From assembly GCA_038869755.1 (NCBI GenBank), contig JAWCQN010000006.1:1-35959 (forward strand): DNA of 35,959 bases, in the 5' to 3' direction. The position numbers are program-made. The stretch is from Candidatus Pacearchaeota archaeon. Its GTDB lineage: Archaea > Nanobdellota > Nanobdellia > Pacearchaeales > GW2011-AR1. Below are positions 18,001-21,000 of this stretch, piece by piece (the stretch's first letter is position 1; each line of letters begins with the position of its first letter).

Positions 18001-21000
18001 AGTGAATATTACAGGAAACAAAGCCATCTTCTCGTCTAAACAACAATGGTTTGGAACAGGCTGGATAATATTCAATATAAGTGATGGAAAAGTTAGTATC
18101 GAAACAAATCAGATAATATTAAATATAAGTGGAATAAATGATCCTCCTATTTTGGAAAAAATCAATGATATTTATGTCTTTGAAGGACAATTAGTTAAAA
18201 TAATACCAAATGCAACAGATCCTGAAGGAGACAACATAACATTTACCTACTCAAGTCCGCTTAATGCTTTGGGAGAATGGGGAACATCTATTGGGGATGA
18301 AGGGGTTTATAATGTAAATGTAAGTGCAACTGATAGAAGAGGTGGAATAGATATTGAATCATTTAAAATAATTGTAATGCCAAAAATTGTAATTAATGAA
18401 TTTTCATCAAACACAATTAATGAATCTGACTGGATTGAAGTTTATAATACCGGAAGCACACAGGCAAACCTATCCTTATGTGTGTTAAAAGACTTAGCAG
18501 ATAATGAGCTTAAATTAACAGGTATTTTGCCTGGTAAAGATTTCAATGTATTTGAGTGGAGCAACAGACTGGACAATGCTGGAGATAGAATTATACTAAA
18601 GTGCAACAGCTATGAACTTGACAGAGTCGTATATGGAGGACTTCCTGAAAATGCGCCTGTTCCATCAGACGGTCAATCAACAGGAAGAAAAACAGACGGT
18701 TTTGATACAGACAACGACGGAAATGATTTTAAAATATACAATAAACCTTCAAAAAAATTCTCAAATTCAGCTGATACAGAACCGCCTATTGTATCTTTAT
18801 TGCAGCCGAACAACAATGTAACATTTGAAACAAGAGATGTAAATTTCACTTACAATGTTAGTGATAATTCTCACTCCCTATCCTGCAGTATCTATACAAA
18901 CATATTTGGTGCTTTCAAATCATTACAGACAAGTTCAGTTCCTTTACTCAATGGTTCATCAACTGGAAATTTCCTTATCAGAGGAATAAATGACGGAAAA
19001 TATTTATGGAATATAGCATGCAAAGATTCAAGAAATATCGTCTTTGCACCTGAAAACAGAACAATAATTGTAAGTGCTCCTGATGCTCCAGTAATAACTC
19101 CTATCGGAAGCAAATTTGTACAGGAAAACAAGACACTGGAATTTAATGTTGAGGCCACAGATCAAGAAAATAATATAATTTCCATAACTGCAAAAAATCT
19201 TCCTCTTGGAGCAACATTCTCTAATAAGTTATTTAAATGGACTCCTGATTTCAATCAAAGTGGAACCTATAATGTAATATTTAAGGTAACTGATACAACA
19301 AACCTGACAGATGAAGAATCTGTAACCATATCTGTCGGAAAAACAATACTTCCTCCTGAATTCAAGGACGCGAAACAGTGCAATAACATAAATGAGTCTC
19401 TTGAAATTTCAATAAAAGATCCAAGAAATAACAAGAAGTTCAGTTTAAATGATAGTATTAAAGTTGAAGTCAGATTAAAGAATAACCTTGATGAGGAAAA
19501 AAAGTTTGATGTTGAAACACACTTATATGACCTGACTGAAGATGAGTCTCTGGATGATAATGATGATTCAGTAAGAATAGGCAAAGGAAAAACAGAAAAC
19601 ATTGAATTAGAGCTTAAAATACCTGATGATGCTGATGATTCAAATAAATTTGCAGTTTATGTAATAGCTGAAAGTGATAATAAAGAGTGCAACATAGCAT
19701 TCACAAACATAAAGATAGAAAGGGAAGATGATGCAATGAAAATTTCCAAATTTAATATTAATCCTGCAACCACTTCAAGGAATCAGGAAGTGTTTTTTGA
19801 AATAACCGTCCAGAATATAGGAGCTGATGATCAGGATGATGTGGTAATAAATGTTTATAATAAAGACTTAAAACTTAACATTAAGTCAGATGGATTTGAA
19901 GTTGAAAGATTTAATGAAGACGACAAGAAAACAAAAAGCTTCTCATTTATGATTCCTGAAAATGTAAAATTGGGAGTTTATAATATTAGTGTAGATGTTT
20001 TATTCAACAACAATAAAATAAGTTCAGAAAGCAGCCTTACAATCATAAATGAAATTCCTGCGCCTGCCAGAGAGAACAATGTTGAATTAACCAAAACGCA
20101 AACTCCTGAAATTATAAAGATAAATCAGCCAACTACTCCAACAACAAAAGAAAATAAAGAAAGTGAACTTAAATCTAATCCTAAAAATTATAAATCAGAA
20201 AAAACCAAAGTAAGTGAAGTGAAATCTGAAATTAAAGAAGAACCAAGTATACTATCACAGCTTTCTATCTCTCCAAGCTATCTTGAAGACCCAAATGTAA
20301 GATTGGCAATATGGGTTCTTGACCTTGTCCTTGCAATAGGGATAATAGCATTTATAATTAAATTAATACTTATCATAAGAGGATAACAAATCCAGATAAC
20401 TTTATAAAGGATTTATTTGTTTGATTTTAGTAGACTAGGCGGCGCGTTAGCTCTGCGCCATCTGCTCGTGAGCTTTAAGCAGGCTGCAAGGAGGCGAGTG
20501 ACTTGAAATCAGCAAGGTCCTTGCTTGGACGTTGATGTTTTGTCCTATTCGATCTTGCTCCTGCGAACCGGGTCAGATCTTGATCGAAGCAGCCCTAAAC
20601 AGGAACCAAGGTGCTTATGGGGTAGCAAAACGGAGAAAAAGCAGGGGAAGCTTTTCTGGTTTTGGGAAGCAAACCTCCGAGTCTACAAATCTTAAATAAT
20701 AAAAACACCTAAATTTTAAAATAAAAAATCCTTGTATTGGAAATTTTTTTTCTTAATGAAAGTTTAATGTCAATATTTTTTAAATATCCGTAAAGGACTC
20801 TTAAAACCTGTTCATGGCTTACTATTAAAACAGAGCCATTTTGATATTTTTTATTCCTGTTTTTGTTTTTTAACTCCCTAATAAAAGAAACAATTCTTTT
20901 TTTTAATTTAGAGATTGGTTCTCCTTTCTTATAATGCATCATAAGCGGGTCTCTTTTTAAATATTCGTTTAGCTCTTCATAGGTTTTCCCGTCAAAACCA

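Follow-up and report, generated by a model that had tools for sequence, protein, structure and literature searches.

The signal recognition particle (SRP) RNA gene of a Candidatus Pacearchaeota archaeon raises the question of whether an archaeal SRP can be built without helix 6 of the RNA and without the protein SRP19, set against the standard archaeal SRP picture as given in PMC6098224. The window analyzed here, i.e., the whole 35,959-nucleotide stretch of DNA, is contig C6 of a 627-kb genome that is 93% complete; numerous ribosomal proteins and polymerase subunits of archaeal type are encoded by its small open reading frames (ORFs). The explanation that we favor, with a probability of about 0.75, is a two-part DPANN SRP in which helix 6 and SRP19 were likely lost together early in DPANN.

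SRP RNA gene and promoter

The SRP RNA was the sole RNA found by Rfam in the window, and its reported position was reproduced by the archaeal model RF01857 (Archaea_SRP) with 63.4 bits and an E value of 5.6e-14. This score is below the gathering score of 96.5, i.e., the threshold for a canonical archaeal 7S RNA. The bacterial model RF01854 (Bacteria_large_SRP) matched positions 20431 to 20685 from end to end (model positions 1 to 256) with 66.8 bits, thereby exceeding the gathering score set for that model (60). The gene is single, an RF01857 search of the genome having returned no second SRP RNA, and has 51% G+C compared to 30.6% for the contig. The closest named SRP RNAs are titled Woesearchaeota or Pacearchaeota, and the source organism likely belongs to the order Pacearchaeales. 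The following features were located:

20401 to 20408, forward strand: archaeal TATA box, 20 to 27 bases upstream of the predicted 5′ end
20428 to 20688, forward strand: SRP RNA gene without helix 6, 261 nt, from RF01857 and RF01854, its ends being the model ends
20430 to 20435, forward strand: helix 1, 5′ strand, pairing with 20681 to 20686
20438 to 20485, forward strand: 5′ part of the Alu domain with helices 2 to 4; UGUNR motif lacking in the junction (20460 to 20461)
20449 to 20474, forward strand: Alu loop-loop pseudoknot, 20449 to 20453 pairing with 20470 to 20474
20557, forward strand: usual archaeal helix 6 branch site, one base for 40 model positions
20558 to 20604, forward strand: helix 8 with its asymmetric and symmetric loops (symmetric loop, 20574 to 20577 with 20588 to 20591); predicted SRP54 site
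20580 to 20585, forward strand: helix 8 apex, UGAU (URRU class) at 20581 to 20584, with a closing U-C mismatch
20681 to 20686, forward strand: helix 1, 3′ strand, pairing with 20430 to 20435

We infer that the SRP RNA is transcribed from the TATA box at 20401 to 20408. Of 94 related SRP RNA genes, 84 had a TATA-like word at the corresponding distance, compared to 3 of 92 control stretches further upstream.

RNA architecture

In canonical archaeal 7S RNA, helix 6 carries a GNAR loop. In the window RNA, the 40-position block of RF01857 is reduced to the one base at 20557, and helix 5 runs straight into helix 8. The lack of helix 6 put forward in the preliminary description was also apparent in an RNAalifold consensus, which gave one unbranched S domain. 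The single-sequence fold was only mildly better than shuffles (z score, −1.59; 13 of 200 shuffles as good), and the structure therefore rests on comparison.

The covariation alignment comprised 50 of the 94 RNAs extracted, picked for spread. With the S-domain pairs taken from RNAalifold on that same alignment and the Alu pairs set by hand, compensatory change was found in 51 of 58 pairs, sustaining the covariation support claimed earlier, and 92.5% of cells were paired, compared to 70.8% in shuffles and 37 to 52% with slid partners. The Alu pseudoknot was compensated in five of five pairs, with 100% of cells paired in the 50 RNAs, and pairing reached 96% in helix 2, 98% in helix 3, and 69% in helix 4, the last value being due to register shifts in the alignment. 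The columns of the symmetric and asymmetric loops of helix 8 were conserved in the consensus fold alignment. A five-pair Alu pseudoknot is known from Bacillus subtilis and stabilizes the protein-free Alu domain (PMC4231752).

The Alu domain had been described as retained. This is correct for helix 1 and the pseudoknot, but UGUNR, the motif expected between helices 3 and 4, is missing. By a loose pattern, UGUNR was present in 2 of 16 RNAs from the genus, 8 of 30 from the order, and 40 of 48 from elsewhere in the class. Overall, sequence comparison supports a predicted fold with an Alu domain and one unbranched S domain, without helix 6.

Distribution of the short RNA

The short form was first thought of as a trait of the order. 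It is not confined to the order (in which an SRP RNA was found in 126 of 151 genomes, all 258 to 272 nt), and the layout also holds across the sampled class, filling a gap left in the preliminary description: the SRP RNAs sampled outside the order are likewise devoid of helix 6 and nearly all short. The class sample consisted of 151 genomes drawn from the phylum, all labeled as the same class; 142 gave an RNA, and 137 of these RNAs measured 261 to 278 nt. The remaining five were three RNAs of 309 to 320 nt, one cut by a contig end, in which no helix 6 was seen, and one represented by its 5′ half only (G265), the 3′ half of which was looked for and not found.

Infernal aligned the extra bases of the three long RNAs, all from genus g97, into the helix 6 slot. 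A helix 6 was nevertheless rejected, the extra bases lying inside helix 8. At their borders, these 37, 45, and 46 bases have a helix of 4 pairs and two bulges of 3 bases each, and they are predicted to be bulge-helix-bulge introns, the RNAs measuring 269 to 274 nt without them. In 26 genomes, RF01857 had missed the RNA or matched it only partly; RF00169 recovered 12 of them, 12 of 12 with the same layout, and gave no S-domain match in the other 14. An Alu-less (4.5S-type) RNA was considered for genus g122, missed by RF01857, and rejected, the Alu region being present. The RF01857 threshold was passed by 0 of 21 genomes from the genus, 20 of 151 from the order, and 132 of 151 from the class. 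As the genus and most of the order fail it, their SRP RNAs are easily missed in annotation.

A pattern search in which the short spacing was required gave 120 loci, of which 28 bear an archaeal title. Outside the class, it yielded four "uncultured archaeon" loci (one of them L234) with neither helix 6 nor an SRP19 match; being chosen by that pattern, they show occurrence, not frequency. In single-gene trees, SRP54 or FtsY from these loci formed long branches apart from the class or were weakly placed with respect to it, and two of the four had an acidic SRP54 (19 to 21% Asp plus Glu), as expected for halophilic DPANN. Four hits titled Methanosarcinales were treated as likely mislabeled rather than as helix-6-less RNAs of that group: the genomes are 0.8 to 1.5 Mb in size with no SRP19 match, and the SRP54 of three nests among class members, none having been found in the fourth. 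The layout probably extends beyond the class to DPANN as a whole, for which it is a candidate marker.

These data bear on whether the DPANN ancestor took a long bacterial SRP RNA by gene transfer. Such an origin would fit the window RNA, which passes the bacterial-large gathering score and fails the archaeal one, and its URRY loop, otherwise known from bacteria (PMC4091067). However, RF01857 gives the best score for most class RNAs, its cutoff being passed in 132 of 151 genomes, and in pairwise alignments with the window RNA the bacterial RNAs come out low in the ranking. Of 48 class RNAs from outside the order, 40 have the UGUNR junction, which is longer in archaea than in most bacteria (PMC4231752), and both SRP54 and FtsY are of archaeal type. 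The model scores, the Alu junction, and the partner proteins point to archaeal descent of the RNA, and a bacterial origin appears very unlikely.

Absence of an SRP19 match and the proposed two-part particle

No Pfam profile match to SRP19 was obtained in the source genome at an E value of ≤10. The absence of SRP19 reported previously was reproduced in 401 genomes at least 90% complete, none of which exceeded the cutoff (0 of 400 without G518, a genome marked as unpublished), and so was the accompanying caveat that the profile finds SRP19 in three of four control archaea, missing that of Sulfolobus acidocaldarius. Weak hits, all below the cutoff, were present in 32 of the 401 genomes (best E value, 0.0026); 30 of these loci were fetched and 23 inspected, with no SRP19-like sequence among the latter, 13 of which we take to be ribosomal protein uS7. 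NCBIfam identified no SRP19 among the 172 ORFs of 70 to 140 amino acids in the 700 called genes, in a search with no positive-control SRP19. In Crenarchaeota, the SRP19 and S8e genes are linked; no SRP19 was found beside the S8e gene here, its neighbors being other genes.

Published gene family tables give the same result. Table S3 of PMC8204110 lists SRP19 as 0 in Aenigmarchaeota (37), Diapherotrites (25), Micrarchaeota (13), Pacearchaeota (90), and Woesearchaeota (196) and as 0.80 to 1.0 in eleven other archaeal groups. In the supplements of PMC5498576, Ffh and FtsY are recorded for 13 of the 15 DPANN and SRP19 for 0 of 15. According to Supplementary Data 25 of PMC13473441, 0% of 173 SRP19 sequences are from DPANN, Altiarchaeota and Undinarchaeota included. 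The same table also gives 0% for Hadarchaeota, possibly a separate loss. With SRP19 in no DPANN group of three published tables, the SRP19 half of the finding is not new data; the main texts of PMC8204110 and PMC13473441 do not mention the SRP. Three supplements of PMC7414124 contain no SRP19 row.

Could a very divergent SRP19, or some other small protein, still organize the S domain? The failure of the profile with S. acidocaldarius and the many small ORFs of the genome without a family would leave room for one, but half of the SRP19 site, formed by helix 6 with its GNAR loop, is missing, the 32 weak hits stayed under the cutoff with 0 of 23 inspected being SRP19-like, and the three tables (PMC8204110, PMC5498576, and PMC13473441) agree. 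A hidden SRP19 hence appears very unlikely.

The SRP54 and FtsY genes are adjacent on contig C1, the RNA-binding motif of the SRP54 M domain is intact, the nearest solved structures of both proteins are archaeal, and the genome encodes SecY and SecE. The Bacillus-like design proposed at the outset, RNA plus SRP54, is in keeping with the RNA layout, the archaeal-type SRP54 and FtsY, and the lack of an SRP19 match; an unbranched RNA in a two-part particle is very probably what this archaeon has. In such a particle, the SRP54 M domain would bind the helix 8 symmetric loop directly, without SRP19, and the Alu domain would dock on the ribosome without protein. As reported in PMC2905702, SRP19 is dispensable in Haloferax and archaeal SRP RNA binds SRP54 without it; in Thermoproteus, SRP54 binding depends on SRP19 (PMC4731332).

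Helix 8 loop and FtsY

The GRRA loop of canonical archaeal helix 8 is replaced in the window RNA by UGAU. This replacement had been presented as a feature of the genus: UGAU is indeed found in 16 of 16 genus RNAs (those found in 21 genus genomes), plus two recovered later, and yet it is neither specific to the genus nor a degenerate GNRA. The loop has a U-C closure in 15 of the 16 RNAs, and the apex can equally be read as a six-base loop. Among the 30 best-scoring order RNAs, a set biased toward GGAA by its choice on model score, 27 have GGAA and 3 have UGAY; 7 of 8 recovered family members have UGAU. The 48 other class RNAs (30 best scoring, 18 picked) divide into 34 with GGRA and 14 with UGAY. 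All 94 parsed RNAs carry either GGRA (61) or UGAY (33), with no intermediate. At least six families of the class include RNAs with UGAU/UGAC loops, and the loop type varies even inside one genus (g19). An FtsY tree was built for 31 genomes selected for their loop type; along it, the loop label changes nine times, three of these changes being forced by strong branches.

Archaeal helix 8 loops are given in PMC2905702 as GGAA, GGGA, and GAGA only, whereas bacterial SRP RNAs have alternatives, URRC being widespread and URRU rarer (PMC4091067). Judged from its sequence, UGAU/UGAC is the URRU/URRC class, known from bacteria and not new. UGAC was seen in 4 of 92 bacterial-titled hits of the pattern search.

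The equivalent of Escherichia coli Lys399 is kept in 31 of 31 FtsY proteins and that of Arg402 is Arg or Lys in 31 of 31, whichever the loop; that of Lys406 is Pro or Ser in all 31. Loop type and the FtsY basic patch did not covary among these genomes. Lys399 is also present in FtsY of Sulfolobus and Pyrococcus, archaea with helix 6, and the mammalian receptor has the same lysine in a system where the tether is unused (PMC6781444). Lys399 hence leaves the matter of the tether undecided. In E. coli, non-GNRA loops reduce activity 20- to 200-fold (PMC6781444).

We lean slightly toward a helix 8 loop that still tethers FtsY. Free of a clamp with helix 6 and SRP19, the apex would contact the FtsY basic patch (Lys399 and Arg402) as in bacteria, and GGAA and UGAY would be interchangeable loops. 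A competing view, implied by the preliminary description, is that the apex became functionless after the loss of helix 6 and SRP19 and has drifted since, FtsY being recruited with no RNA tether. The many loop changes on the FtsY tree, even within g19, next to an unchanged basic patch would be expected under drift, and mammalian SRP manages without the tether (PMC6781444). Against this, only GGRA and UGAY were seen in 94 RNAs, both retaining the central G-purine, which suggests constraint rather than drift. The same alternative loop class is used in bacteria, and drift would scatter the loops as it has in plastids (PMC4091067). A functionless apex therefore seems doubtful to us.

Direction of change

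[quoted passage not shown] With a root in Euryarchaeota, the change is a loss on the DPANN stem; with a root in DPANN, the absence could be primitive. The former root, at or in Euryarchaeota with DPANN derived, is favored by a 2026 reconciliation study (PMC13473441), which under it gives a probability of SRP19 presence of 1 at the archaeal root and 0.3 in the DPANN ancestor. In PMC7414124, the root of Archaea falls either within DPANN or between that group and all other archaea.

If the absence were primitive, the long unbranched RNA of DPANN would be a holdover from the universal ancestor, and it would be in a forebear of eukaryotes and the remaining archaea that helix 6 and SRP19 arose. The identity of layout with long bacterial RNAs, the lack of SRP19 in every tabulated DPANN group down to Altiarchaeota and Undinarchaeota (PMC13473441), and the root placed at or within DPANN (PMC7414124) are all compatible with that history. 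It is nonetheless unlikely given the Euryarchaeota root with derived DPANN and SRP19 at the archaeal root (PMC13473441), the 0% of Hadarchaeota, perhaps a separate loss (PMC13473441), and the dispensability of SRP19 in Haloferax (PMC2905702), which indicates that the protein is easily lost. We thus regard loss of helix 6 and SRP19 as the probable course of events.

Novelty and significance

A search of the open literature, most subscription papers lying outside it, yielded no report of an SRP RNA from archaea that lacks helix 6 or carries a simple intron. The passages of PMC10266531 on the SRP annotate an expressed nanohaloarchaeal SRP RNA and give Ffh and FtsY, leaving helix 6 uncommented, and a term search of the texts of two preprints (10.64898/2026.05.13.725050 and 10.64898/2026.06.17.729505) returned no mention of the SRP. 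Hence, the SRP19 half of the finding is already published as data and the RNA half was not found in print.

In a large archaeal class, and probably in all DPANN, an RNA arm and its protein are cleanly missing together, which breaks the archaeal rule. This joint absence is a discrete character, composed of an RNA and a protein, with relevance to the monophyly of DPANN and to the root of Archaea. As a natural minimal archaeal SRP, the particle allows SRP54 binding and FtsY recruitment to be asked about without SRP19, and the pairs of close relatives with GGAA and UGAY are natural material for testing the tetraloop tether.

Comparison with known systems

With canonical archaeal 7S RNA (RF01857; Methanocaldococcus jannaschii and Archaeoglobus fulgidus), the window RNA shares helix 1, the Alu pseudoknot, a long helix 5, helix 8 with its SRP54 site, an archaeal SRP54 and FtsY, and an archaeal promoter. 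It differs in having no helix 6, hence no helix 6-8 adenosine clamp, and no SRP19. The canonical RNA is about 300 nt long, compared to about 260 to 275 nt for the class RNAs, and its GRRA loop is UGAY in part of the class; UGUNR is missing in this genus.

The long bacterial SRP RNA (B. subtilis type, RF01854) has in common with the window RNA an Alu domain, an unbranched S domain, and, probably, a single protein. The window RNA, in contrast, belongs to an archaeon with archaeal SRP54 and FtsY and a TATA promoter. Given that the class RNAs are closer to the archaeal model, the likeness to the bacterial RNA is one of layout and does not imply descent. Bacterial SRP RNAs with URRC or URRU loops (PMC4091067) have the same loop class in place of GNRA, the class loops differing in that they are often closed by a U-C mismatch.

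The permuted circular SRP RNA of Thermoproteus tenax is another departure from the archaeal standard (PMC4731332). It is processed at a bulge-helix-bulge in helix 8, to which the intron-bearing relatives described above may be compared, and unlike the window RNA it keeps helix 6 and SRP19 (PMC4731332). The window RNA is neither permuted nor interrupted.

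Predicted introns in SRP RNA genes

Within one family of the same class, f23 (18 genomes), 3 of the 15 SRP RNAs carry an insert of 37 to 46 nt within the SRP54-binding loop of helix 8:

L094:123-431, (-) strand, SRP RNA with helix 8 insert, genome G191
L095:130-449, (-) strand, SRP RNA with helix 8 insert, genome G165
L096:117-430, (+) strand, SRP RNA with helix 8 insert, genome G235

All three inserts are flanked by a bulge-helix-bulge motif of canonical appearance, the inner stems of which differ from locus to locus, and a splicing endonuclease gene is present in each of the three genomes. 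We predict that these inserts are introns removed by splicing. Simple introns of this type have been suggested in PMC4731332 as forerunners of the permuted SRP RNA gene of Thermoproteus.

A further SRP RNA locus with a predicted bulge-helix-bulge intron, of 18 nt, was found in family f38:

L379:1501-1617, (-) strand, SRP RNA locus with predicted intron, genome G193

Here the predicted intron lies immediately 3' of the helix 8 loop, a site different from that of the f23 inserts, and it is not present in two congeners of G193.

Other genes in the window

The window holds the genes for RtcB and its cofactor archease, which together carry out the ligation step when archaeal introns are spliced; the archease gene lies within a type IV pilus-like cluster:

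791-15181, sugar-modifying gene cluster (two family 2 glycosyltransferases, PIG-L deacetylase, WbqC-like protein, polysaccharide deacetylase, DegT aminotransferase)
16922-20386, (+) strand, predicted surface protein of 1154 aa with Ig-like, lamin-tail, and cadherin-like domains, its gene ending 41 bases upstream of the SRP RNA
21270-29900, (-) strand, type IV pilus-like cluster with a T2SSE ATPase, a pair of T2SSF membrane proteins, and several small ORFs whose starts resemble those of pilins
27176-27583, (-) strand, archease
32806-34236, (+) strand, RNA ligase RtcB

Incomplete, missing, and possibly mislabelled SRP components

One genome, G265, yielded only the 5' half of an SRP RNA, with a TATA box upstream and AT-rich sequence downstream; a search for the 3' half found none. 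The half RNA may reflect an assembly break, a pseudogene, or a split gene:

L103:134-273, (+) strand, Alu domain plus one helix 5 strand

The entire SRP appears to have been lost in class member G208, a 0.5 Mb genome on a single contig with 98% completeness, in which searches gave no match to SRP RNA or to the SRP54 M domain.

Helix-6-less SRP RNAs were also found at four loci labelled Methanosarcinales (L134, L153, L179, and L244), but SRP54 placement and genome size suggest that these are probably mislabelled DPANN bins. The label of L240, "bacterium," is possibly also wrong: its UGAU loop with U-C closure occurs elsewhere among archaeal-labelled matches.

Outside DPANN, a tabulation in Supplementary Data 25 of PMC13473441 gives SRP19 in 0% of Hadarchaeota versus 100% for Ffh, possibly the result of a separate loss.
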